The position numbers and the translations under genes were made by a program. Below are positions 684-36,193 of a stretch of 36,193 nucleotides of DNA, one piece after another (position 1 is the stretch's first letter; each line of letters starts with the position of its first letter). Source of the DNA: a virus. The notes below the pieces were generated by a model that saw only the letters and a list, made by a program, of their open reading frames with translations, was not told the origin of the DNA and searched no databases. The stretch lies in the UHGV virus genome UHGV-0315046. The stretch is one strand, 5' to 3'.

Positions 684-2531
684 TTATAATGATGATATTA
701 AATAGTATTCAACAAGTGTTGGTAAGGAAACACCAACAGGTGTTGGTCTTGATATTGTTATTGTTGTTCCTGAAACTGAAACAGTGTCCATTGAGTTTGC
801 AGCATCAGTTGGAATTACGCTGGCAGAATATATGACGCCAGAAATTGGGTTTGGGATGTCTGCAGTTCCTGATGTAGCTCCGGGTGACATAGGTACAGTT
901 ACCTTTCCTCTAGTTAATTTATTGTTATTAACCCCAAAGTTATTGTTTCTATCTTTTGGTGAGTTTAATAAGGTAAGTGATGTTATGTAATTACCGTTCA
1001 ATGAGAGACCGTCAATATCATCAAACAACAAATCACTAGCAAACATACATCCATTGATATTAATATTTCTTGATGTTTTTGAATAAATTGATTTATCACC
1101 ACCAATTATATTTACTCCCAAAACATTAACATTACTGACATTGTTTAAAGATATACCTATATTGTTATTGATAGGGTTATTGTTTTCACACCTAATTTCC
1201 ACTCCTTCTATATTACGAAGAACTGAAGGCGTCTGAGATCTAAAGTCTATTCCAACAAACTGATTAATGCTGTCACCTTGTGCGGCAATCCAGCAATCTC
1301 TTACAGAAAAAACAGAATTGTTATTTTCAAGAATTATCCCAGTTGACCCTACGAAATCAATATCGACATTCGAAAGATGCATATAAAGGCTACCTTTTAC
1401 CCATATCCCAACGTTATTTGAGATACACATTGTCTCACCATCAATAATTATCCCCTCGCTTATCACTTCACCACCAGACCATGAGTAAGTTTCTGGTGCA
1501 ATATCTATTCCTATAGACGATGGTTGAGACAATCCCTTTCCTGTGAATTTACATCCTGATATATGTATACTAACACACTGACCAAGCAATCTAAGACCAA
1601 TATTACACCCACTAGCTCGGCAGTTTGTCATTGAGCTGTGCCACCAGCCTTGCATTTCAAAACCTATTGAACAATTTTGTACCGTGACGCAGTCAAAATT
1701 AAGAGCGTAAACTTGCCTTATTACTGTATCGCTTTTTTTTAAGGTAGTTCCTATCCCCTTCACTATATCGTTTCCAGTAATGGTTATGTCACGAATAAAT
1801 GCACCTGCTGTTGTAGGGCCATAATCAAAACATATAATATAAGCATTACTATTACTTAAAATATCTCCTATTGGCCGTATATGAGTTCCGTTTCCACATC
1901 CGAACAAATTAATTCTATCAGGGATAATAATAGTTTCACTAATTCTATACTCTCCTGCTGGAAGAAATACATTACATCCAGATGGATATGAACTCTTTAG
2001 GTCTTGAAGACAGTTTTTAATTGCTGTTGTGTCATCATTGACGCCATCAGCTTTAGCTCCCCAACTGAAAACAGAAAAGGTCATTGCATTAAACAAATGT
2101 TGAGTCTGTGGAACCGCTCTCGGAAAAGGTTGTTTAACAGCAATTAGAGAATCTCCCATTCCTTCGGATGGGCTTGATAACCTTTTTTCAAGCTGATCAG
2201 GATCATACTTCAGCACATTCGGAAAATAGAACTGCTGTGCACCATACGCATCATAAACAGCCATAGAATGGCCTTGCACAGTTACGAATTTGGCAATCTG
2301 TCCGTTATATACAGGATACCCGCCAGCGTTAATGATGATTGGTTGCGAAACAGGAACGTGAGAGCCGTCTTCATTCTCTACATAAACCTGAATCCGGTTT
2401 TCAGGATTTACCGGGTCAGTGTCAATTTTCCCGATATAAATTTCGCCATTGGCTACGGCTTTAAAAGAACGCGCCATAGTGAAGAGTTGCGAAGGCATAC
2501 TCACTACAACATTGGCTGTAATGTCTGTCAT
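684..2531 (-). CDS. Tailspike protein: P22 gp9-type N-terminal head-binding domain fused to a divergent beta-helix receptor-binding domain
   Basis: 615-aa ORF. The first ~110 aa ([29 protein letters not shown]...VLKYDPDQ) match the conserved P22/Sf6 tailspike head-binding domain as I recall it; the remainder is Asn/Gly/Ile-rich with repetitive beta-helix character and lower GC. Confidence 0.9.
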
Positions 2532-3624: not shown

Positions 3625-3686
3625 GTCAATATTTCCTAATCCGATTTGTTGATACCGAAGCCCTGACTGTTACAGCAGTTGGGGCT

Positions 3687-3878
3687 TCAACTTTTATCAG
3701 CGACTTCAACTGGAATACTCTCTAGCTTTTCATCTAACCCCTTCTCGCCATGCATGAAAATAACAATATCTGTAACGCATGAGTCACAAATTGCTTCTTC
3801 GGTATTTTTTGACACAACAAAGCCCCTGCCAGTCGTTTCTTTACTACACCCACAAAAACAACATCTGCGGTTTTTCAT
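3687..3878 (-). CDS. Small Cys-rich (zinc-ribbon-like) protein between arc and ant
   Basis: 63-aa ORF with CCFCGC...CDSC (CxxC...CxxC); its ATG overlaps the arc stop as ATGA, suggesting translational coupling. Confidence 0.45.
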   Translation of the reverse strand: MKNRRCCFCGCSKETTGRGFVVSKNTEEAICDSCVTDIVIFMHGEKGLDEKLESIPVEVADKS

Positions 3879-4027
3879 ACCACTACCCCCTCTCTCTTCA
3901 GGCTGTCCAGCAATCGCTTAATCACTTCCGAGTTAAACGACCGGCATTCTTCTTTGGCCTTTCCTGTAATCGCATCTTTTAGCGACTGAGGCATTCTCAC
4001 CAAAATTCTGCTAACTTCTTTTTCCAT
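3875..4027 (-). CDS. arc: Arc-like ribbon-helix-helix repressor
   Basis: Start refined to the internal Met (MEKEVSRILVRMPQSLKD...) preceded by GGTGG. RHH pattern hydrophobic-R-hydrophobic-P...NGRS-NSE resembles P22 Arc; divergent to mnt. Confidence 0.7.
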   Translation of the reverse strand: MEKEVSRILVRMPQSLKDAITGKAKEECRSFNSEVIKRLLDSLKREGVVV

Positions 4028-4136
4028 ACCGCCACCATGTGAGTTATTGTGAATCACAAACATATCACTGTGACTATATCAAGTCAAAATTTTTTTGAAT
4101 ACACTGTGATATCAATGTGATTATCACGGTGTAAGT
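4028..4136. promoter_or_regulatory. Divergent Pant/Pmnt promoter-operator region
   Basis: 109-bp spacer between divergent arc and mnt starts containing palindromes TTGTGAaTCACAA, TGATATCA and GTGATtATCAC, consistent with Arc/Mnt operators. Confidence 0.5.
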
Positions 4137-4391
4137 ATGACGAAGGTTAGAGACATAGCCCCATATAGCGTAAGAATGCCAGATAGCCTCAAGCGCGACC
4201 TGACCATAAGAGCATCGAAAAACGGACGCTCATTAAATTCAGAAATAGTTATGATCTTGCAAGCTGCTATTGATGAAGAAAAATCACCAAGATCAATAGA
4301 AGGTTTTGCTCAACAAGAATCTGAAAAATTTAGGGAGGCTCTTCTTAAGACTCTCAGTAGCATGTACGGAGAAGATAAAAAACCCACCTGA
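4137..4391 (+). CDS. mnt: Mnt-like ribbon-helix-helix repressor
   Basis: 84-aa ORF; N-terminal RHH (YSVRMPDSLKRDLTIRASKNGRSLNSEIV) resembles P22 Mnt in length and motif. Confidence 0.75.
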   Translation: MTKVRDIAPYSVRMPDSLKRDLTIRASKNGRSLNSEIVMILQAAIDEEKSPRSIEGFAQQESEKFREALLKTLSSMYGEDKKPT

Positions 4392-4399
4392 CGGCGGGT

Positions 4400-4849
4400 T
4401 TAGTCAAACATAGTGTTTCTAAAGTCTCTCGCATACCCTGCTAACACTCTCATTCTATTATGATTGTTAGCAGACATGTGAGCTACAGGATGAAAAAGAG
4501 CAATCAATGAATACCTGTTCTCATCAAAAAGATTTTGTGCATAAACGAGAGCGGTATTGGATGTTTTATGCCACTGCAACTTTTGCGGTGTGCTGATATC
4601 TGTGCCATTTTTTATTGGCTCAAATTTATTTTCACCAATTGCTAAATGAAGGTGCATAAGACCTGCATCTTCAATATCAGGAGGACGATGATAAGAGGTG
4701 TCTCTGCCAAAATAGCTGGGCAACGTTCCCGTAGACTTGTAGATGATAAAATCATCTACAAGTGTTTGTTTTAAATCAGGAAACTCAACAAAAACCGGGG
4801 AGAAAAAATAGTCAAAACTATCCTGATTATATTCCACGGTTACTTGCAT
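4400..4849 (-). CDS. YafO-like toxin candidate (ribosome-dependent mRNA interferase family)
   Basis: 149-aa ORF. Motifs DFIIYKSTGTLPSYFGRD, MHLHLA, ALVYAQNLFDE and NNHNRM align with my recollection of E. coli YafO; not verified by search. AT-rich relative to flanking structural genes. Confidence 0.45.
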   Translation of the reverse strand: MQVTVEYNQDSFDYFFSPVFVEFPDLKQTLVDDFIIYKSTGTLPSYFGRDTSYHRPPDIEDAGLMHLHLAIGENKFEPIKNGTDISTPQKLQWHKTSNTALVYAQNLFDENRYSLIALFHPVAHMSANNHNRMRVLAGYARDFRNTMFD

Positions 4850-4857
4850 GTTTTACC

Positions 4858-5424
4858 TCAGTGGAAGTTACCAGAGTGAAACACACGAGTCCCGTGCTCA
4901 GCAAGCGCACGCAAACCAGCCATATCTACGGAACTATCAAAAACAACCGGAACACATGAGCGTTGTTTAATAAGACTATTCAGGTTAGTTACGGCAGATC
5001 TAGCATCAGCAACAACGATATAGATATCTCTTGCGATCTCTTTAAAATCAGCAGAAGCTTCTTTGAATACCGATTTCATTGCCCCTTCAAGTCCTCTCAA
5101 TTGATGCTCTATCAATCGAGACTTTTCTGGTTCAATGATAGACAACACATTGTCTACATTCTCATCGGTAGCGTTTGCAAGAACACGATAAGCGTATTTC
5201 AGCATTCGAGACAATTCTTTAATCGAAGACACCGCCTCATGAAGCTCATCATTAGCCCGTTCACTGCTGAATGAGGATTGATGGTAAGCGTGCTGAACGT
5301 TATCAGTAACAACCACCTCACAACTGAACGCAGAAGCTTGCTGTAATAGCAAACCTATTGCGACTCCAGCTTTGGCAGCGTTCAAGCTAAACATTTCATC
5401 AATCCCATTAGTCTCATTGCTCAT
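4858..5424 (-). CDS. Hypothetical protein, upstream partner of the YafO-like gene
   Basis: Start refined to MSNETNG..., preceded by AAGGAGG at ~6 nt. 188 aa, predicted mostly helical, no recognised motif. Stop lies 9 bp before the downstream gene start, same strand. Confidence 0.6.
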   Translation of the reverse strand: MSNETNGIDEMFSLNAAKAGVAIGLLLQQASAFSCEVVVTDNVQHAYHQSSFSSERANDELHEAVSSIKELSRMLKYAYRVLANATDENVDNVLSIIEPEKSRLIEHQLRGLEGAMKSVFKEASADFKEIARDIYIVVADARSAVTNLNSLIKQRSCVPVVFDSSVDMAGLRALAEHGTRVFHSGNFH

Positions 5425-5599
5425 ACAAACCTCCTTCTTATCGGAGATTATCAATAGCTATGTATCCATTGAATACACGCTATGCGCAGTAATTCTACGT
5501 CACGTGATATCATTATGCAACCACCGTTCTATCACCGACTAACTTTACTCCCACTCCTATACATCATCTGGTATCCTGCTCAAAACTAAGGAGGTTGGT

Positions 5600-5929
5600 G
5601 TGCTTGAATGGTTTCTGTTGGCTGCATTAGTCGTTTCTGGTTTGGTGTATGAGTATCGAATGCACTCTCTAACAAAAAAAATAGGAATTCTAGAAAACGA
5701 ATATTGTGCTCTCAAATCCTCACTGGAACGTGAGCAAGGGGACTTAAAAATCTCTCTGTCTAGCATTGAGCGTTCTATAGAGAGCTTAGAGGATAAGGTT
5801 GAGCGTATAAAGAATGAGGATATTCATGATATTAAGGACGACATATCCTTCTTAAAATCTTGGTTGAAAAATGTTGGGAAAATTGCCACATCAACACGAG
5901 ATAAGCTCAATCCATCCATGGATGACTAA
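5600..5929 (+). CDS. Small membrane-anchored coiled-coil protein (moron)
   Basis: GTG start preceded by AAGGAGG. N-terminal hydrophobic helix (LEWFLLAALVVSGLVYEY) followed by heptad-like charged repeats; stop abuts the convergent ejection-protein gene. Confidence 0.55.
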   Translation: MLEWFLLAALVVSGLVYEYRMHSLTKKIGILENEYCALKSSLEREQGDLKISLSSIERSIESLEDKVERIKNEDIHDIKDDISFLKSWLKNVGKIATSTRDKLNPSMDD

Positions 5930-8050
5930 TTACTCCTGTGCCATTCCGCTTAGCGATGCCACAATTCCAGCTCTTGCTAAACGCTGGAACTCTTCGTTTC
6001 CTAGTGCCTCGCGTATTGCTTTTACGGCGGCCTTATTTGCCATAAATCTGCGTTCCGCCGCCGCTAATGCACCATCACTTGCCCCAACCTTAACTGCCTT
6101 TGTTGCCTCTTGAACAGCCTTTTCAATAGCGTAACGACCGCTTCTAGTTGCGGATAATTTCGCTATCGCTCCTTTTGCCATTGCATCAATTGCCCCACCT
6201 GCAGCGCCACCCGCTATTGCTCCAATAACGCCTCCTCCAGAGAACCCTGCGATAGTGCCAGTAGTTCTAAAAGCGCCAGACAATGCGCTCTCTAAAACTG
6301 GATGAAGGCCATTCTCAAGAGTGCTAATGGCTGGCATAGATCGCCCTGTCTGTTCAACATATCGAAGTGGCTTTGTTGCTGCTCGTGCAAGTTCTCCGTA
6401 TGAACTTGTAATCCTGCCAAGTTCTGGAGAATATCGACTAATTGCCTTCACGTTTTGTGGGGTAAGAATAGTCGCGATATGCTTAATTCCAGCCTCTTCA
6501 GACTTACCTCCGCGTACCCCTTGCGACATTGCATCTTGTAATATTGATGCAATTGCTGGCGCGCGTTCCGACTCAGGTAGGGCGCTTATTATTTTATGGA
6601 ACTGACCTGTTCCACTTTTTGCTGAACCCTGTAACGCCTTAGATCCATTAGTTACCAACTGATCAGTTGCAAGGTCTCTACCAAACGCTGCTTCAGCCTG
6701 TTCTTGTGCTGTAAATCTTGCCTTTGACAGATCATTAGCTTTTTGCCAGTCATCAAGAAAACCGCCATTTTGAGCCATTATGCGCATATCTTCCGTTGCT
6801 GCATCACGAAGCTCAGCCATGCGCCTTGCCGTATTTGCCTCACCAGACCTTATATACTTCTGCTCTGCGTCAGCAAGTTTACTTCGCCATGCCTTCATGG
6901 CATCAAACGTGATTCCTTTTTTACCAGTTTTAGCATAAGCAGATGCGAATTGTTTCATCTCAGGAGTTAGCGGCATGCCAGCCAAAATATCACCCTGAAT
7001 TGTAGCGTTCAGGTTTGACATTCTGGCCTTTGCGTCAGGCATCGTGGAGCGGACGCTATCCCATGCGGCCTTTTCTGAATTTTTCATTTTATCAATACTT
7101 GCCAAAACCCTTTGTTTTATGGCTGCACTTTTTTCTGATGCAGTTCCTGCTTCAGCCCCAAACTCATCCAATGCTGAGTTAAATTTCGACTCTATTTCAC
7201 TGAATGCTTTGGTGTGTGCATCCTGTGTAATTCCGGGCTTTGACGCCAGAATCCCCTCCGCCTGAGCAAGACCACGACTACCTGATCTCATGCCAGGAGT
7301 TAATGCGTTGATATCTATTCCAGCAGTATCTGCTGCTTTTGCTATTTCGTCTGACACATTAGCTGACTGTCTGGCAATAATCTCTCTTCCTGTACCAGAC
7401 TTTGCCATTTTCGAAACATCAGCAGCGGAATTTATTGCCCCGCCACCAAGAACTTGAGGTGATTTAGAGGTTAAGATCCTTCCAGCCCCAGAAAGTATCC
7501 CCTGAGCACCAATATTGATACCACTGTTAATGGCAGCATTTTGTGCAAAGTCGCCCTCCTGATTTGCAGCATCAGCAAGAGAACCTGCAATCATGTTTCC
7601 TGCGGAACCGATATCTCCAGCGAGCTTTGCTGGCGCTCCAGCAGCTTTTGCTGCTGTGCCAATTGGCAGGAGATACCCACCAATTGTTTCACCGGCTTGC
7701 GCGTAAGGGTCTGTCGGTCGATCGACTGGACGATAGACATCATCCAAAACCTTGGGGCCACCAAGCCCATGGCTGATTGCATTAATCAGACTTGCGCCAC
7801 CCTGCAATACGTCAAATGGTATGTTTACCAGACCACGGCCAGCCTGTTCTGCAATTTGCCCTGCACTTTGACCACCAGTGAGCCAGTCAGTGGCTTTTCC
7901 TACCAGAGATTGTTCTTCTGGCTGCGATTGGTTTTGAGTGGATTGATCACCAGAAGACAGCATCTGAGCAATGCGACGTGCTCCCTCAGTATCGCCGGCA
8001 GCATCAGCATTCCTTAACGCCGTCATCAATTGTTCACGACTATAGGCCAT
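5930..8050 (-). CDS. Ejection (internal virion) protein, P22 gp16-like
   Basis: 706-aa Ala/Gly-rich protein at the gp16 position after the gp20 homolog; longer than P22 gp16 (~609 aa). Confidence 0.7.
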
Positions 8051-20638: not shown

Positions 20639-21160
20639 TTAAATGATTTGCCAGTCTTCTGCTAGAACATCAGTCTGACTAGCCAGCCACGGTACTAATT
20701 TATCGTCCGCTGTTTTCATGGCGATATACGGAAGTTGTTTCGGAGATCGTTTCGATTCTCCATGCGTACCTTCAGGCAACTCAAAGACGCGACTGCAAAA
20801 GCAAGGCGTACTGCCAGTATGAACAGCCTCAGTGTACGGTTTAACGTATGCCAGCCACATACCCTTACCATTCCAGCCAGCACGAGCAACTTTATTCCCC
20901 AACTTGAGCGCTTCAATGGCAAGGCCGAAACTTAGCCCAGATACCGGACGATAAGCCTTTTCGAATACTTCTTTTGGACTCCAGCTAACGTAGCCATCAA
21001 AGCGATCGGTGTTAGGTTTTCCGCCATCCAGATATTCAACCAGATAGCCTTCGTCCTCGCCGTTTTCTCCGGCAGGAAGCTGCCAGCCACGAAAATCGTT
21101 ATATGCCTGTCTCGTCATCGGAAAGGCGTTAATCAGTTTTACGCCAATATGCTGGGTCAT
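20639..21160 (-). CDS. Two-domain hypothetical protein with DUF2829-like (Tad2-like) C-terminal half
   Basis: 173 aa; C-terminal half (FGLAIEALKLGNKVARAGWNGKGMWLAYVKP...LPYIAMKTADDKLVPWLASQTD) fits the DUF2829 pattern as I recall it; not verified. Confidence 0.5.
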   Translation of the reverse strand: MTQHIGVKLINAFPMTRQAYNDFRGWQLPAGENGEDEGYLVEYLDGGKPNTDRFDGYVSWSPKEVFEKAYRPVSGLSFGLAIEALKLGNKVARAGWNGKGMWLAYVKPYTEAVHTGSTPCFCSRVFELPEGTHGESKRSPKQLPYIAMKTADDKLVPWLASQTDVLAEDWQII

Positions 21161-23692: not shown

Positions 23693-23877
23693 GGCCTTCC
23701 CCTTTTTCCCTGTTTGACCATCAGGACGCCGTTAACTATTACGTGACGCTCGACTTTACTGTCTCGGTTGTACTTGAGCACTGTTCCTCTTGCGCAGGAA
23801 AGCATCCTTGCCACTTCGGTCTGATTGCCTCGTGTCTGGATAAGAAGCTCTGGTATCGTTTGAATTGTGGCGTTCAT
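23689..23877 (-). CDS. ninH: NinH-like small DNA-binding protein
   Basis: 62 aa; motif GNQTEVARMLSCARGTVLKY...IVNGVLMV resembles lambda NinH; sits immediately upstream of Q. Confidence 0.65.
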   Translation of the reverse strand: MNATIQTIPELLIQTRGNQTEVARMLSCARGTVLKYNRDSKVERHVIVNGVLMVKQGKRGRP

Positions 23878-24236
23878 GCGTTCTCCAGTTCGGTGATTTT
23901 TATTCCAAGCCTTCCGCCTGGTACTTTCACGCCACGAATTACGCGAATGTCATCGAATTGCTCGTCGTCTTCCGCAAATCCGGCGTGGATAAGGGAGTCG
24001 AGTAAACCTTTCAGGATGTTATCGAGGTCGCGGCGGCGGGAGTCTGGAACGTCTGCGATGACTTTGATGCGGAGTCGTGATTTGGTGAAAATGTCTAACT
24101 TGAGTTGGCGGATGATTTGCTGAACGTCTTTTCGGTATTTCTGGCCTTTATCGCTGATGTAGTATTGACTCCCCCGTCTTCGCCAGTAGGTATTCACCGA
24201 CGGCGGGTATGGAAGCACAAACTGATATTCGTTCAT
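23874..24236 (-). CDS. rusA: RusA-family Holliday junction resolvase
   Basis: 120 aa; motifs PPSVNTYW, DVPDSRRRDLDN and GGRLGIKITELE match the RusA family. Confidence 0.85.
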   Translation of the reverse strand: MNEYQFVLPYPPSVNTYWRRRGSQYYISDKGQKYRKDVQQIIRQLKLDIFTKSRLRIKVIADVPDSRRRDLDNILKGLLDSLIHAGFAEDDEQFDDIRVIRGVKVPGGRLGIKITELENA

Positions 24237-24523
24237 GGCTTAATCTTCCCCTCCTTCAGCAGTATCGCCTGCGTCCTGATCACGCCTTCGAGGTGGTAAA
24301 GTCTGGCGTCTTTGTTGTCGAGAATCATTGTGCGTCGGTCGATTTCATCGTGACACGCGCTACAAGCCCATGCGCCGATCAGGTCGTCAGGCTTCATTCC
24401 AGTTCCGCAAATTCCAGCCATCCGGTAATGTGCCAGAACTGTAGTTTCAGGATTACCATTGCATACGCCGTAAATACGTACCTGGCATTCTCTGCCGCGC
24501 GCTTCTTTGCGTAGATTAGCCAT
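24233..24523 (-). CDS. ybcO: YbcO-like (DUF1364) putative nuclease
   Basis: 96 aa, several conserved Cys/His (CQVRIYGVC...HY...C...CSACHDEID); same size and RusA-adjacent position as DLP12 YbcO. Confidence 0.55.
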   Translation of the reverse strand: MANLRKEARGRECQVRIYGVCNGNPETTVLAHYRMAGICGTGMKPDDLIGAWACSACHDEIDRRTMILDNKDARLYHLEGVIRTQAILLKEGKIKP

Positions 24524-25424: not shown

Positions 25425-25952
25425 TCATGCCGCCCTCCTGACGCCCTGCCCGATCGCCATCAATGCCGCTTTGGATACGGTAGTAAACATCCGTCTAGGA
25501 CTGATGAACGGTCGCCAAATCAGCAGCATTGAGCCTTTACTGTTTCCCTTCTTCTCCAGCCCCGTCGATGGTTCGATAAAATTAATCCGTCCATCAGTGA
25601 TAATACGAACTTCGTCAACACTCTCCAGAGCCTTGCTGAACCATCCGACAGACATATCCTCTGGCACAAGCATCACTACCGTCTGGCGCTGTTGTATGCA
25701 CTGCTCAGCGGCTTTTTCCACCCACGGCCTGATATTGCTGTACGGTGGGTTATTCCAGATTGCACCGTGGCTTATCCACTCAGAATTTAGCGCGTCGTCA
25801 GCCTCAGTTAGCCAGTGAGCGCACAGAGCATTTTTGTCGCTCGCTGCCGAATCCAGCCAGAATCCAAACTCAATATCCAGTGCATCAAAAAGCCAAAGCG
25901 GCGTTTGCCAGCAGTCCTTGTCGTGTGCTGGCGTATTTGATTTGATAGTCAT
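25425..25952 (-). CDS. Orphan phage Dam-type DNA N6-adenine methyltransferase
   Basis: Start refined to [22 protein letters not shown]-coupled to the ninB stop. Catalytic NPPY motif ([14 protein letters not shown]); no adjacent restriction endonuclease gene. Confidence 0.8.
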
Positions 25953-26389
25953 GCAGCCCGATCTCCCCATCGCGCTTTCCATTCGAGAGCCAGTCGCGCT
26001 TCGTCTGACCACTTAACGCCACGATCTGTACCGAATGCCTGTATAAGCTCTAATAGCTCCGCAAATTCGCCTACACGCATCCTGCTGGTTGACTGGCCTA
26101 TTACCACAAAGCCATTCCCGGCAAGGTTAGGAACAACATCCTGCTGCTTTAATGCTGCGGTAAACACACACTTCCAGCTTTCTGCATCCAGCCAGCGACC
26201 ATGCCATTCAACCTGACGAGAGACGTCACCTAAGCAGGCCCATAGCTTCCTGTTTTGGTCTAAGCTGCGGTTGCGCTCCTGAATGATCACTACGATTGGC
26301 TTGGTTGGGTCTGGAAGAATTTGCTGCACCGCGTGAATAGCGTTTTGCTGATGTGCTGGGGATCGAATTTCAAAGGTTAGTTTTTTCAT
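25949..26389 (-). CDS. ninB: NinB recombination protein
   Basis: Start at MKKLTFEIRSPAHQQNAIHAVQQILPDPTKPIVV...; appears near-identical to lambda NinB (146 aa) as recalled. Confidence 0.85.
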   Translation of the reverse strand: MKKLTFEIRSPAHQQNAIHAVQQILPDPTKPIVVIIQERNRSLDQNRKLWACLGDVSRQVEWHGRWLDAESWKCVFTAALKQQDVVPNLAGNGFVVIGQSTSRMRVGEFAELLELIQAFGTDRGVKWSDEARLALEWKARWGDRAA

Positions 26390-29652: not shown

Positions 29653-30369
29653 ATGGAAAATAAAAAATCACTGACGACAGAACAGCTCGAAGACGCTAAG
29701 CGGCTTAAGGCTTTGTATGAGTCAAAAAAGAAAGAATTGGGAATAACCCAATACTCAATCGCTGATGAACTGGGTATCACCCAAGGAGCGGTAGGGCATT
29801 ATCTTAATGGCAGAAACGCGCTAAACGTTGAGGTTGCATCTGGTTTTGCACGATTGTTGCAAGTCTCAATTGCTGATTTTAGCCAGTCAATTGCTGCCAA
29901 GGTTGCAGAACAGGCAGAAAGCCTTAAGAGCGATGCCAACGTAAGGTATGCAGGGGAATACAGAGCAGGAAAGAGGTATCCGGTGTTAAGCAGTATCCAG
30001 GCTGGCTCGTGGTGTGAAGCATGCGAACCATACACCATTAAAGACATAGATGTTTGGCTTGAGTCTGACGCGCATATTCAAGGTAATGCGTTCTGGCTTA
30101 AAGTGGAAGGTGATTCAATGACGGCACCGGTTGGGTTAAGCATTCCAGAGGGAACATTCGTTCTTTTCGATACCGGAAGGGAGGCGATCAACGGCAGCTT
30201 GGTCATAGCAAAACTTTCTGACTCTAACGAAGCAACATTCAAGAAGCTGATAATCGACGGCGGAAATAAATACCTCAAGGGACTTAATCCTGCATGGCCT
30301 CTCGTGCCAATCAATGGAAACTGCAAGATTATAGGCGTTGCAATTGAGACAAAACTAAGGCTGGTTTGA
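29653..30369 (+). CDS. cI: CI repressor (HTH N-terminal domain plus S24 LexA-like autocleavage domain)
   Basis: 238 aa; N-terminus LTTEQLEDAKRLKALYESKKKELGITQ resembles lambda CI; Ala-Gly cleavage site (SIQAGSW), catalytic Ser (EGDSMTAP) and Lys (FKKLI). Confidence 0.9.
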   Translation: MENKKSLTTEQLEDAKRLKALYESKKKELGITQYSIADELGITQGAVGHYLNGRNALNVEVASGFARLLQVSIADFSQSIAAKVAEQAESLKSDANVRYAGEYRAGKRYPVLSSIQAGSWCEACEPYTIKDIDVWLESDAHIQGNAFWLKVEGDSMTAPVGLSIPEGTFVLFDTGREAINGSLVIAKLSDSNEATFKKLIIDGGNKYLKGLNPAWPLVPINGNCKIIGVAIETKLRLV

Positions 30370-30386
30370 TCACGCAAGGGGCGATT

Positions 30387-30755
30387 ATGGTTGGAACCGC
30401 TATAGCAAGCTTTTTGGGGATGTTGGCAATCTCAACAATTTACGGCTTAGCGCATGCTTTTATTGCGAAATCTCTATCAGAAAAAATAAGCCAGGCTTGG
30501 GCGCATAGATCTGCTCGTTTCATGATTCTAGTGGTCATAGCAATACAAGGGATATCTGCATTTATCCTCTATGGATCAAGCTTATACCTGTTGTATCAAG
30601 GCGCGACATTTACGCCTTACACCAGTGATTACGGAACTCTATACGATGGTAGTGAAGACATCTCTATGGCTTGGATCGTCTTTGGTTTATCTATGGCCGT
30701 GTCTGTTGTAGCAGACATCATTAAGGTAATTCTCGTCTTAACCTTCGCTGACTAA
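30387..30755 (+). CDS. Small multi-pass membrane protein co-transcribed with cI (rexB-position moron)
   Basis: Start refined to MVGTAIASFLG... with AAGGGG upstream; about four hydrophobic helices by inspection; begins 18 bp after the cI stop and ends before OL. Confidence 0.55.
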   Translation: MVGTAIASFLGMLAISTIYGLAHAFIAKSLSEKISQAWAHRSARFMILVVIAIQGISAFILYGSSLYLLYQGATFTPYTSDYGTLYDGSEDISMAWIVFGLSMAVSVVADIIKVILVLTFAD

Positions 30756-31940: not shown

Positions 31941-32225
31941 GTGGATATGAAAGAGTTTAAGGGTACGCCTGGTAAATGGAAGTACACGGTTAGAAACGTC
32001 AACGAGATGATGACTACGTTCCATGGTGTGACGATTGGTGACACATACATTGAAGCAGCAACAAGAAATGAAAGGGAGGATGCGCTACTGATAGCAGCAG
32101 CTCCTGATTTGCTTGAAGCACTGCAAGAGCTTGTCTTCCTTTACGAGCATGACGAAGGGTGCAGAGAGTTAACCGAATACAAACGAGCCAAGGCAGCAAT
32201 CAGCAAGGCTCTGGGAGGTGAATGA
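31941..32225 (+). CDS. Small hypothetical protein, paralog A of an EFKGTPG-W family
   Basis: 94 aa; shares EFKGTPGxW, (I/T)AAAP(D/E)LLEALQ and AIxKALG with the ORF at 32892-33134. Confidence 0.55.
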   Translation: MDMKEFKGTPGKWKYTVRNVNEMMTTFHGVTIGDTYIEAATRNEREDALLIAAAPDLLEALQELVFLYEHDEGCRELTEYKRAKAAISKALGGE

Positions 32226-32891: not shown

Positions 32892-33134
32892 ATGAGCGAA
32901 TTTAAAGGAACTCCCGGTCCGTGGTTTTGGGATGAAGAGGGCTTGGGAAACAAGCATCACATAGTCTTTGGAAAGGGATATCCACTTGAAATGACGAGCA
33001 AGGAAAACAAGACTCTCATTACTGCAGCGCCTGAATTACTGGAAGCTCTGCAGGCTGTAGTTAGAGTAGCAGACCGTCAAACAGATGAGTTTGATATGGC
33101 TCGTTCCGCCATCGACAAGGCACTCGGCAAGTAA
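32892..33134 (+). CDS. Small hypothetical protein, paralog B of the EFKGTPG-W family
   Basis: 80 aa; see paralog A for shared motifs. Confidence 0.55.
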
Positions 33135-33213: not shown

Positions 33214-33510
33214 ATGGCTGCATATCTCGTTCAAGACCGTATCGAGGCGCAGAACTGGACGCGCCATTATCAGCAAATAGCCAGAGAAGAGCGTGAATCT
33301 GAACTGGCTGATGACCTCGAAAAAGGATTGCCACAGAGCAAACTGGAATCGTTGTGCGTTGACGAGTTGCAACGTCGCGGGGCCAGCAAGAATGCCATTT
33401 CCAAAGCATTCGATGATGACGTCGAGTTTCAGGAAAGGGCCGCTGAATTTATTCGCTACATGGCAGAGACAATTGCTCGCCACCAAACAGATATTGATGA
33501 GGGACAGTAA
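33214..33510 (+). CDS. gam: Gam (RecBCD inhibitor)
   Basis: Start refined to [41 protein letters not shown] with CAGGAGCC upstream; close to lambda GamS as recalled. Confidence 0.85.
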
Positions 33511-33512
33511 CG

Positions 33513-34427
33513 ATGAGCATGAGCATTGTTGAGTTCGTTAAACAGCAAGAGCCGCTCTTTGTTGGGGCGGTTACAGACCAATCAGTCACATGGGCTAAGG
33601 AAAGCCAGTTTGCAATTCAGTATTTCCAGAAAAATGATTACCTGGCTAAAACAGCACTGGCAAATCCGACCAGCGCACAGAACGCTATCATCAACGTTGC
33701 GGCGATCGGCATCACCTTAAACCCGGCCAGCAAACTGGCTTATCTGGTTCCGCGCGACGGCATGGTTTGCCTTGATATCAGCTATATGGGATTGCTCCAT
33801 ATTGCAATGGAGTCTGGTGTTATCTCATGGGGTCAGGCAAAACTTGTTCATGCTAACGATACCTATGAGTCAAACGGGCTTGATAAAGCACCAACCCATA
33901 AATACAACGCCTTCGGTGATCGTGGTGATATCGTTGGCGTTTACTGCACAGTTAAGACGCCAGCAGGTGATTATCTAACGGAAGAGATGAGTCTGGCTGA
34001 AATTGAGGCTGTAAGGAAAACAAGCAAGGCAGCATTCAGTGATAAAGGACCATGGGTAAATCACTGGAATGAGATGGCGCGAAAGACGGTCGTAAAGCGT
34101 GCAAGCAAGTATTGGCCTAAGGCATCACGTCTTGATAGTGCTATTCACGTACTAAACGAAGAAGAAGGTGTGTGGACTGAACCAGTTATGCCGCACAAAT
34201 CAGAGGAAGATATCCGCGAAGATGAACGGAAACGCCAGCAGGAAATTATGGAAAAAGCACAACTTCTTTGTGATGAAATGGCTCAGGCAGAAAACATGGA
34301 TGATTTGAAGCGATATTTTTCAGAAGCATATCGCCTGACATCTGGAATGAAATTGCAGCAGAACGTACAAGCCATATACATAGAATGCAAAGCGAAACTG
34401 GAGGTTGCCAGTGAGCAAACTGTATGA
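33513..34427 (+). CDS. recT: RecT-family single-strand annealing recombinase
   Basis: 304 aa; motif GPWVNHWNEMARKTVVKRASKYWP resembles the conserved RecT C-terminal motif; sits at the bet position after gam. Confidence 0.75.
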   Translation: MSMSIVEFVKQQEPLFVGAVTDQSVTWAKESQFAIQYFQKNDYLAKTALANPTSAQNAIINVAAIGITLNPASKLAYLVPRDGMVCLDISYMGLLHIAMESGVISWGQAKLVHANDTYESNGLDKAPTHKYNAFGDRGDIVGVYCTVKTPAGDYLTEEMSLAEIEAVRKTSKAAFSDKGPWVNHWNEMARKTVVKRASKYWPKASRLDSAIHVLNEEEGVWTEPVMPHKSEEDIREDERKRQQEIMEKAQLLCDEMAQAENMDDLKRYFSEAYRLTSGMKLQQNVQAIYIECKAKLEVASEQTV

Positions 34428-34893
34428 AATTGCCAATGAATACGCAAAATTGATGGATTCAGATTTAGAACCAGAGATGATTGCTGACACAATAGAAGGC
34501 ATGGAAGGAGAATTTACCGATAAAATAGAGCAACTTCTTTCCGTCATTAAAAATGAATCTGGTTATGCTGAACGCCTCAAGGAAGAGGCAAAGTCACTGA
34601 ATGAGCGAGCCGCAGTAATCCAAAATAAGATTGACAGCATCAAATCATATATAGCGTCATCGCTTGAAATGGTTGGCAAGAAAAATATTCGAGCAGGTAT
34701 TCACCAGGTAACAATCCGCAAACCGTCAGAAATTGTAGAAATAATCGACTCAAGCGCCCTTCCTCCTGAATACGTTGAGTTTGAAACGACAATTAAAGCC
34801 GACAAACTGGCAATCAAACACCAACTAAAAGCAGGAATAAATATCCCCGGCGCTCAACTCAAAGTTGGGAAACCTTCACTTCTTATCAAATAA
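34411..34893 (+). CDS. Hypothetical protein, possibly Sipho_Gp157-like
   Basis: GTG start preferred (GGAGG 7 nt upstream, overlaps the recT stop); coiled-coil-rich, about 160 aa; family call from memory only. Confidence 0.45.
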   Translation: MSKLYEIANEYAKLMDSDLEPEMIADTIEGMEGEFTDKIEQLLSVIKNESGYAERLKEEAKSLNERAAVIQNKIDSIKSYIASSLEMVGKKNIRAGIHQVTIRKPSEIVEIIDSSALPPEYVEFETTIKADKLAIKHQLKAGINIPGAQLKVGKPSLLIK

Positions 34894-34904
34894 CGGTATC
34901 GCCT

Positions 34905-35219
34905 ATGAAAAAGACTCCATGGGAGAAATGGGAAGTCGATTTCTTGCGCGAAGTAGCGGCGACAATGCCAGTTGAAGTTATCGCTGAAAAACTGGAAAGG
35001 ACTGAAAAAGCAGTAATGGCAAAAGCAACAAGGATTGGCGCTGACATTGTTAACCGACTTCGTGGAAGACGATGGACAAGAGCCGAAGTATCACTTTTCG
35101 GTAAGTTCTCCGCAGAAGAAATAGCAATTGCAACCTGCCGCTCAATTTATTCAGTAAGAGCTATGCGATACAAGCTAAAAAAACTCGATGAAGAAAGAGC
35201 AGGCATACGAATAAATTAA
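34905..35219 (+). CDS. Hypothetical early protein
   Basis: 104-aa basic ORF; weak RBS. Confidence 0.45.
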
Positions 35220-35235
35220 CAAAGAGGAATTTACC

Positions 35236-35400
35236 ATGAGAGGACTTGCATACAATCCCGGCATTCTTCCGGCAGAAATGATTATTCGCCAACGCGTAAA
35301 GCCAATGCCATCGAGAGAGGAATTGCTTAAAAGAAATAGTTTCGGTTCTGTTAATGACAACAAATATCTGAATGCGATGTGGCGGAGTGGGAAGAAATGA
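35236..35400 (+). CDS. Small hypothetical ORF (54 aa), below the ORF-track cutoff
   Basis: Hand-translated [54 protein letters not shown]; AAAGAGGAA upstream; stop overlaps the next start as ATGA. Confidence 0.3.
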
Positions 35401-36050
35401 AACAAATGACACTAATTGAGATGGATGGTTTTCTGAAAGGCAAATGCATCCCACGAGATTTAAAGGTTAACGAAACAAACGCTGAATATCTTGTCCGTAA
35501 GTTCGGTGAACTTGAATCAAAACTGGAAACGGCGTTGCGGGAGTGTCGTTCTGCTGGAATCACGATTGATAACCTTGAGGCTAAATGCGCGAAGATGGCT
35601 GCAAAGATAAATGTGATTAACGAACTCATGGAAGTAGCTGAACAGGTCAACAAACTGGCGCAAGAAGAAACAGAAAAACTTGCTCATGAACGCAATACGC
35701 TGGCTGCTGAGAATGCGGGACTGAAGGCGACATGTGAGGACCGTCGAACGTTCATCATGAACGGTGTGCAACTGGGTTATATCAAGGTTCCTACAGTAGA
35801 TACAGACCCGGCACTTGATGCCATTCGTGTTGCTGTGTCACCACAAGAGTCAACCCCAGCCACCGACGATTTCCTGGCTGAAGTGCGGGCGCATGACCTC
35901 AACGCTTTCATTCGGCATCACAGTGCAGAACTGGATGCGCATATTAAAAACGGTGGTGAGCAGTTCGACGAAAAATCAGTACGCATCAGAGACATCATCG
36001 TCTCAGCCCGCTTGTTCAGGGAGCAGATTCGCAAAGGAGTGCAGTCATGA
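35397..36050 (+). CDS. Hypothetical early protein (coiled-coil)
   Basis: Start refined to [11 protein letters not shown]...; 217 aa with a central heptad-rich segment. Confidence 0.55.
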
Positions 36051-36193
36051 GCAAATCATACATCGTTATTCAGCAGTACTGGTGGTGCAACGAGAAAGGC
36101 CATGGAGTTGAATACACGACAGACGGCGTTGACTTCGATAAGCGCGATAAGGCAATCAAGCATGGTCTGAAAACACAAGGTAGTGATGATTTC
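36047..36193 (+). CDS. Hypothetical protein, 5-prime partial (runs off the window end)
   Basis: ATG overlaps the upstream stop (ATGA); open to the last base of the window. Confidence 0.45.
   Translation, partial: MSKSYIVIQQYWWCNEKGHGVEYTTDGVDFDKRDKAIKHGLKTQGSDDF

Follow-up and report, generated by a model that had tools for sequence, protein, structure and literature searches.

The Rec modules of lambdoid phages were recently analysed in 325 phages, and 84 of the 246 modules were found to be without a nuclease (Zheng, Casjens, Davidson, Amundsen, Smith, Genome Res 2025, PMC12315714). The P22 functional class of nuclease-free modules comprised 46 phages (PMC12315714). The same survey reports that one type of RecT, named SAP-4, to which the RecT analysed here belongs, works with different partners in different phages, namely a MuGam-type protein without any nuclease in HK140, Exo in phi80, and RecE in Edno5; that HK639 possesses both GamL and MuGam, being one of only three phages in which a function is represented twice; and that nearly all headful packagers possess a Rec module (PMC12315714). 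A shuffling of partner domains was raised by these authors, and left open (PMC12315714). For lambda, the C-terminal domain of the Beta annealase is a three-helix bundle that has been crystallised bound to lambda Exo and is required for recombination of double-stranded DNA (PMC6393309). This domain binds the tail of the host SSB protein as well as Exo (PMC6393309). In phages of Firmicutes, gp157, Mu gam-like, DUF1351 or DUF2483 genes are placed beside erf or sak4; analogous functions are inferred by the authors for these genes, among which gp157 and Mu gam-like genes are alternative upstream neighbours of erf/sak4 (PMC8093625).

The window, i.e. the whole stretch of 36,193 nucleotides analysed here (UHGV virus genome UHGV-0315046), covers the greater part of a temperate phage that is P22-like (Lederbergvirus-type). 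Its main features are listed in Table 1. The virion, lysis, nin and replication genes come after the tailspike gene and are on the minus strand. The early-left genes are all on the plus strand, in the order cI, N, and further on cIII, kil, gam and recT. Only 2 nt separate the stop codon of gam from the ATG of recT, and the recT and gp157 genes overlap by 17 nt. The three genes gam, recT and gp157 belong to the N-antiterminated early-left operon and are coupled in translation, and no terminator-like site was found on the plus strand inside the module that they form. The early-left ORFs of the window beyond the module include DUF2737 and an Ea22-like protein. In the same region, the real start of a 223-aa ORF is the ATG at 35397. 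The 36-kb window has a single Chi site, where 1.1 are expected.

Table 1. Features of the window discussed in the text, in order of position.
Feature	Position	Strand	Support or remark
Tailspike gene	684-2531	-	
RusA Holliday-junction resolvase (nin region, accessory)	23874..24236	-	PF05866, E 1e-16
NinB/Orf recombination mediator (nin region, accessory)	25949..26389	-	PF05772, E 3e-53; gene call on contig L003
cI-like repressor	29653-30369	+	plus-strand early-left operon runs from here onward
Lambda-type Gam, 98 aa, GamS-like, predicted RecBCD inhibitor	33214..33510	+	PF06064; phrog_259
RecT-family single-strand annealing protein (predicted), 304 aa	33513..34427	+	PF03837; phrog_148
RecT C-terminal domain of ~60 residues, proposed Gp157 docking module	34245..34424	+	tail profile and alignments
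Sipho_Gp157 family protein, 160 aa	34411..34893	+	PF05565; phrog_253
104-aa protein, two helix-turn-helix-like repeats, 'D5-like'	34905..35219	+	phrog_11492, E 5e-23; phrog_323, E 7e-20

An earlier note, made from the DNA letters without database searches, had read the three coupled genes as gam, a recT-family gene and, more tentatively, a coiled-coil gene of the Gp157 family. All three assignments were borne out, as in each case the Pfam score was above the curated cut-off and PHROGs agreed. The Gam protein matched PF06064 with an E-value of 5e-51 (171 bits, cut-off 25) and shares 74% identity with the short GamS form of lambda Gam (residues 41-135). An AGGAG ribosome-binding site lies 6 nt 5′ of its ATG at 33214. 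RecT matched PF03837 over residues 32-218 (E 6e-32, 111 bits, cut-off 24) and phrog_148 with an E-value of 9e-90. It is made of three successive parts, namely a core (approximately residues 1-225), a charged linker and the C-terminal domain. The third ORF (34405-34893) matched PF05565 over its full length (profile positions 1-162, E 2e-37, 129 bits, cut-off 28.6). The homologs of Gp157 are all 160 aa long and start with MSKLY or MTxLY. Given this uniform length, we take the GTG at 34411, which is preceded by GGAGG, as the true start, rather than the TTG at 34405.

The other claim of the note was that no RecE/Exo-like nuclease is recognisable in the genes downstream of recT, and it had proposed that the sequence past the window be searched for one. 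Inside the window, Pfam, PHROGs, phmmer with lambda Exo and a YqaJ-type profile all gave no such enzyme. No Exo, YqaJ, RecE, DnaQ or PD-(D/E)XK exonuclease was found among the early-left ORFs by Pfam and PHROGs, and no SSB (PF00436) among those that were scanned. A Pfam scan of the nin region returned NinB/Orf, RusA, YbcO, Dam and NinX, and no 5′-3′ dsDNA exonuclease. As the window ends inside the ea region, the search was extended to matching contigs and to relatives. Two metagenome contigs, L003 and L004, correspond to the same phage and both end in the ea region. The next three genes of L003, which adds 1.35 kb past the window, do not encode a nuclease, ~2-4 kb from the end of L003 to int being uncovered. 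In phage Dewey (PQ850600, a Lederbergvirus with a complete genome of 40,352 bp, PMC12243541), the operon was examined by reading and scanning between gam and int. No exonuclease was met, just HNH-type and Ea22-like genes; for the part of the Dewey genome lying right of the early region, the check relied on annotation only. No nuclease was detected either in the early-left operon of mEpX1 (Pfam scan), or in that of L006, a complete prophage operon running into host genes (precomputed Pfam hits).

Similarly, neither the window nor any Gp157-type locus gave a match to lambda Exo by phmmer or to the local YqaJ-type profile. As a positive control, the same searches did find the exonucleases placed beside three sister RecTs, with E-values of 1e-43 to 1e-142. 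The methods used are thus able to detect such enzymes, which supports the claim of the earlier note, both for the window and for the sequence past it. We conclude that a phage-encoded exonuclease is very probably absent. The annealase gene has no cognate 5′-3′ exonuclease gene beside it, as a SynExo pair would, and the module, with neither a nuclease nor an SSB among the scanned early-left ORFs, is of the nuclease-free lambdoid "P22 functional type" (PMC12315714).

The place of the exonuclease is taken by Gp157. Its gene is directly 3′ of the annealase gene, a slot in which sister phages, whose RecT cores are 53-69% identical to that of the window, have an exonuclease of the YqaJ or lambda-Exo type. 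The gene order is RecT, YqaJ, SSB in Aeromonas phage 56, and RecT, HNH, YqaJ in Yersinia phage YenM_39, while in Stx2 phage PV11-59 RecT is followed by an exonuclease 87% identical to lambda Exo. Alignment of the RecT proteins showed that the cores are conserved and the last ~60-80 residues are not. For instance, the core of the PV11-59 protein is 64% identical to that of the window, and its tail is ~60% identical to residues 192-261 of lambda Beta, which form the domain of the crystal structure with Exo (PMC6393309). The tail of the window RecT, which ends ...LCDEMAQAENMDDLKRYFSEAYRLTSGMKLQQNVQAIYIECKAKLE... and is common to the Gp157-linked RecTs, aligns neither with the tails of the exonuclease-linked sister proteins nor with the C-terminal domain of lambda Beta. 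By these alignments, the annealase of the window does not have the exonuclease-binding type of C-terminal domain that belongs to SynExo pairs.

Next to this, a local profile of the tail matched the annealases of 14 loci, and in all 14 a Gp157 gene was present downstream, directly or after an inserted HNH gene. The profile did not match the three exonuclease-linked RecTs, and no recognisable copy of the tail was seen in the distant Sak and ERF proteins that are linked to Gp157. In IMG/VR, Gp157 was downstream in 80 of 80 loci bearing the tail; these loci, retrieved by tail alignment, are near-identical E. coli prophages, and serve for counts, not for diversity. When the tail alone was searched against a collection of 5.8 billion proteins, only truncated RecT fragments were returned, and the tail-bearing cores came from tblastn on phage genomes. 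One of them, in Pantoea phage PdC23, is an ERF-family core, unrelated to RecT. It carries the same tail, 53% identical to that of the window, and is followed by a Gp157 protein 62% identical to that of the window. The C-terminus of P22 Erf, which by eye had some likeness to the tail, was dropped as a candidate relative, the profile search giving no significant match.

We conclude from these comparisons that the ~60-residue tail of RecT moves along with Gp157, independently of the core. Within one RecT clade a change of tail goes with a change of partner gene, and for Beta and Exo, whose complex has been solved, the tail serves to bind the partner, so that the tail of the window RecT most likely binds Gp157. 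By analogy with Beta and Exo, Gp157 would then probably dock on RecT at the place where Exo sits in other phages, and we regard a partnership between the two proteins as likely. The tail and gp157 are adjacent pieces of DNA, so that a joint transfer simply as neighbours is also possible. Alternatively, since the C-terminal domain of Beta binds SSB too, the tail of RecT might be an SSB adaptor instead.

The Gp157 family is very large, with 7371 cluster representatives at E≤0.001. The AlphaFold2 model of the protein (pLDDT 96) consists of a short helix, a helix of 68 residues (residues 21-88) and a small C-terminal domain. The near-invariant positions of the family are L4, Y5, K38, Y80, K132, G142, G147 and I159. 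As no Asp, Glu or His is found among them, a metal-dependent nuclease is unlikely. In PHROGs, phrog_253 is labelled "Mu Gam-like end protection", and Gp157 and Mu Gam are alike in size and layout. The Gp157 protein of the window had no match to PF07352 (Mu Gam/Ku-like) at E≤0.1, and BLASTP gave no alignment of it with Mu Gam. A collinear profile alignment of Gp157 and Mu Gam was obtained with an hhalign E-value of 0.0017, but a probability of 15%. PF07352 was matched by 22 of 127 members of the Gp157 family, with coiled-coil families such as RasGAP_C scoring alike, and fold searches with Gp157 gave no useful match. A link between Gp157 and Mu Gam is no more than suggestive. Concerning genomic context, distant Gp157 genes adjoin Sak and ERF annealases in other phages.

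The gene that comes after gp157, encoding the 104-aa protein, accompanies the RecT-Gp157 module in 79 of 80 IMG/VR loci, and on one short contig (P0004) it is fused in frame to gp157. The protein is weakly similar to Mu gp9 (E 5e-5), the gene of which adjoins Mu gam; this gene order is one hint toward a link between Gp157 and Mu Gam. A P22 Abc1-like annotation of the 104-aa protein, found in phage Gally, was rejected, as BLASTP gives no alignment.

The interpretation of Gp157 as a partner of RecT has to be weighed against other explanations of the same locus. It could be that a cognate exonuclease was missed, being encoded in the uncovered 2-4 kb before int or having a nuclease fold that went unrecognised. 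Indeed, neither the window nor its matching contigs reach beyond the ea region, and several of the downstream proteins have no family assignment. We nevertheless hold this to be very improbable, as the operons of Dewey, mEpX1 and L006 could be followed through to int without meeting a nuclease domain, and as the lambdoid partner nuclease sits within the contiguous cluster of Rec genes (PMC12315714). In the three exonuclease-linked loci examined here the nuclease does neighbour the annealase, and the tail of the window RecT is not of the Exo-binding type. Gp157 could also act outside recombination, in replication, exclusion or anti-defence, and merely lie beside recT, the module then being reduced to Gam and an orphan RecT. 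The name of the family derives from a region of a Streptococcus phage with a link to phage resistance, some records term Gp157 a "resistance protein", and our literature search found no biochemical study of the family. This second explanation, which we judge improbable, does not agree with Gp157 being the neighbour, in unrelated phages, of annealases of the RecT, ERF and Sak families, with the translational coupling of gp157 to recT, nor with the co-segregation of Gp157 and the annealase tail.

Another possibility is that Gp157 is an independent second antagonist of RecBCD, of the MuGam type, making no contact with RecT. The tail of RecT would then bind SSB or another host factor, as the C-terminal domain of Beta binds the SSB tail besides Exo (PMC6393309), and RecT would act alone on host-made single strands. 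In the survey of Zheng et al., the proteins of HK140 and HK639 are indeed counted as MuGam-type anti-RecBCD (PMC12315714), and the PHROGs label reads likewise. Moreover, the common form of the module is without Gam, which leaves Gp157 as the only candidate RecBCD antagonist there. The weak collinear similarity to Mu Gam and the 22 of 127 family members touching PF07352 also point in this direction, although coiled-coil noise, of which RasGAP_C is an example, yields similar match counts for PF07352. On the other hand, the window would then encode two RecBCD antagonists, a situation that the 2025 survey encountered in 1 of 325 phages (PMC12315714). Nor would it be explained why tail and downstream partner are exchanged together on two annealase cores that are unrelated to each other, in phages that all have gamma-proteobacterial hosts. 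We therefore think that this role as a second antagonist is unlikely, and retain Gp157 as a partner of RecT.

Taken as a whole, the locus is best explained, and with reasonable probability, as the exonuclease-free recombination module of a P22-like, headful-packaging temperate coliphage, in which RecT would be assisted by Gp157. In such a module Gam would block RecBCD, so that the ends of linear phage DNA survive. Gp157 would probably dimerise as a coiled coil, and may bind double-strand ends in the manner of Mu Gam; we see this DNA-end binding as quite conceivable, if somewhat short of probable. By binding the C-terminal domain of RecT, Gp157 would probably bring RecT to the DNA ends, in a way comparable to lambda Exo and Beta. 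The single-stranded DNA needed by RecT may be supplied by host enzymes (for example RecJ and a helicase) or by replication intermediates. RecT would then anneal complementary strands, leading to circularisation of the terminally redundant genome and to concatemers, and NinB/Orf and RusA would aid the RecA-dependent steps and resolution.

In its most specific form, the proposal would be that Gp157 is a non-catalytic DNA-end adaptor, a functional stand-in for the exonuclease, that docks the portable tail of ~60 residues of RecT and ERF annealases and loads them at ends resected by the host. We put this forward tentatively, and consider it rather more doubtful than not. If true, there would be a nuclease-independent route for the loading of phage annealases, and an exchangeable tail would specify the partner, as for Beta and Exo.

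The exonuclease-free module described here is real, but modules of this kind have already been described in lambda-like phages, and it is largely ordinary. By sequence comparison, both its gene order and its RecT match those of a published phage, Dewey. The occurrence of an annealase without an exonuclease is not an annotation gap, and being a common and catalogued lambdoid design, it is not to be chased as an anomaly. What is added here is modest and testable, namely that the last ~60 residues of the annealase would predict the identity of the next gene, either Gp157 or an exonuclease of the lambda-Exo/YqaJ type. Such a rule hints at a role for Gp157, a very large and uncharacterised phage family. 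It may also matter for recombineering, as a RecT protein taken from a Gp157 module may need Gp157, and not an exonuclease, for recombination with double-stranded DNA.

Compared with known phages, the region is 99.5% identical at the DNA level to that of Dewey, and the RecT proteins are 100% identical. The order in Dewey is the same as in the window: gam-like, RecT-like, "Mu Gam-like end protection", D5-like regulator, and DUF2737. The two phages differ in the Ea22-like genes downstream, so that 87% of the query is covered, and their virion and tailspike genes are ~87% identical. Judged by these identities, the window and Dewey are different mosaics of one phage type. The HK140/mEpX1 type resembles the window by its RecT and Gp157, which are 94-97% identical, by the D5-like gene that comes next and by having no exonuclease, but has a 103-aa protein (phrog_3486) instead of Gam 5′ of recT. 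This phrog_3486 form is the common one, found in 75 of 80 IMG/VR loci, whereas a lambda-type Gam joined to a recT of the window's type is rare (1 of 80 IMG/VR loci), although present in the published phage Dewey. Among 5426 complete E. coli genomes none spans the gam-recT junction, and 269 give a partial match to the sequence across it, in most cases to the 5′ portion of a recT of this type. HK639, Klebsiella phage KO-TP1 and L006 also have a RecBCD inhibitor, RecT and Gp157, and no exonuclease. In contrast to the window, their inhibitor is of the phi80 GamL type (phrog_1050, PF28165), not lambda Gam, and identities to the window amount to 76-81% for the RecT core, 49-58% for the tail and 61-64% for Gp157.

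P22, with Erf, Abc1, Abc2 and Arf, also has a nuclease-free Rec module that combines an annealase with a function directed at RecBCD. However, its annealase belongs to the ERF family, Abc2 modifies RecBCD where Gam blocks it, and there is no Gp157. The modules of Firmicutes phages have in common with the window that Gp157 recurs beside annealases of different families; there, the gene is 5′ of the annealase gene and usually accompanied by a phage SSB, whereas in the window it is 3′, with Gam and without SSB. Finally, unlike in lambda Red and in RecT-YqaJ (SynExo) systems, the partner in the window is not an exonuclease, and the tail of its RecT is not of the Exo-binding type. The likeness to these systems is in the position and order of the operon, where an annealase whose partner domain forms a separable C-terminus is encoded before its partner and, in the case of lambda, in a homologous Gam.

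The recT of the Stx2a-converting phage Stx2_PV11-59, which lies in a stretch left unannotated in its record, is followed by an exonuclease gene whose product is 87% identical to lambda Exo. This RecT is a chimera: a core 64% identical to that of the window RecT is joined to a C-terminal part with about 60% identity to the lambda Beta domain that binds Exo.

Coordinates of the features discussed in the window and in the loci compared
Feature	Source	Position	Strand	Remarks
Chimeric RecT and exonuclease	Stx2_PV11-59 (LC645412; L015)	3929-5634		
HNH homing-endonuclease gene	Pantoea phage PdC23 (L017)	3647-4111		
HNH homing-endonuclease gene	Yersinia phage YenM_39 (L016)	4413-4901		
HNH homing-endonuclease gene	phage Louie			H2, H114
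103-aa protein	phage mEpX1 (L002)	5695-6006		phrog_3486; gp35
104-aa protein after Gp157	window	34905-35219		two ~45-residue helix-turn-helix-like repeats
YbcO putative nuclease	window	24233-24523	-	PF07102
RusA resolvase	window	23874-24236	-	nin region
Protein (173 aa) bearing a Tad2-like (Thoeris anti-defence 2) domain	window	20639-21160	-	PF11195, E 2e-25
Small protein, phrog_1273	window	31941-32225	+	PF27050 Phage_P22_Y8K6
Small protein, phrog_1273	window	32892-33134	+	PF27050 Phage_P22_Y8K6
129-aa predicted membrane protein	window	30366-30755	+	no family assignment

The exact junction between the annealase and its partner gene, be it Gp157 or a YqaJ exonuclease, holds an HNH insert in several unrelated phages, which suggests that this junction is a recurrent insertion site for such genes. 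Directly upstream of the annealase, mEpX1, Gally, PA-1, PdC23 and 75 of the 80 IMG/VR loci of the module carry the 103-aa phrog_3486 protein, for which no Pfam match was found. Its slot is that of Gam in the window, and of GamL in the HK639 and KO-TP1 modules. It may have a so far unrecognised role, either directed at RecBCD or accessory to recombination.

On the other side of the module, the 104-aa protein weakly resembles Mu gp9, whose gene adjoins Mu gam, and is fused in frame with Gp157 in a 256-aa protein (P0004, from one 865-bp ENA contig). The Abc1-like label given to it in the Gally annotation was unsupported by BLASTP and was rejected. Further downstream, the window breaks off in the Ea22-like gene region (36047-36193), as do L003 and L004, independent contigs from metagenomes that carry this phage; all the breaks fall within about 0.2-1.4 kb of one another. 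Repeats of Ea22-type sequence shared among prophages probably interrupted the assembly here.

Among the minus-strand genes of the window, those for YbcO and RusA lie side by side in the nin region, adjoining the genes for Dam methyltransferase and NinB/Orf. Their functions belong to junction processing, and neither supplies a 5'-3' exonuclease. The Tad2-like protein gene is located between the lysis and packaging genes.

Upstream of gam, the two phrog_1273 paralogues, which share the motif ...KGTPGxW...AAPxLLEALQ..., lie on either side of the cIII-kil segment. The reading frame of the 129-aa predicted membrane protein directly follows the cI-like repressor gene and overlaps its end, the same position as that of rex or sieB-type exclusion genes.
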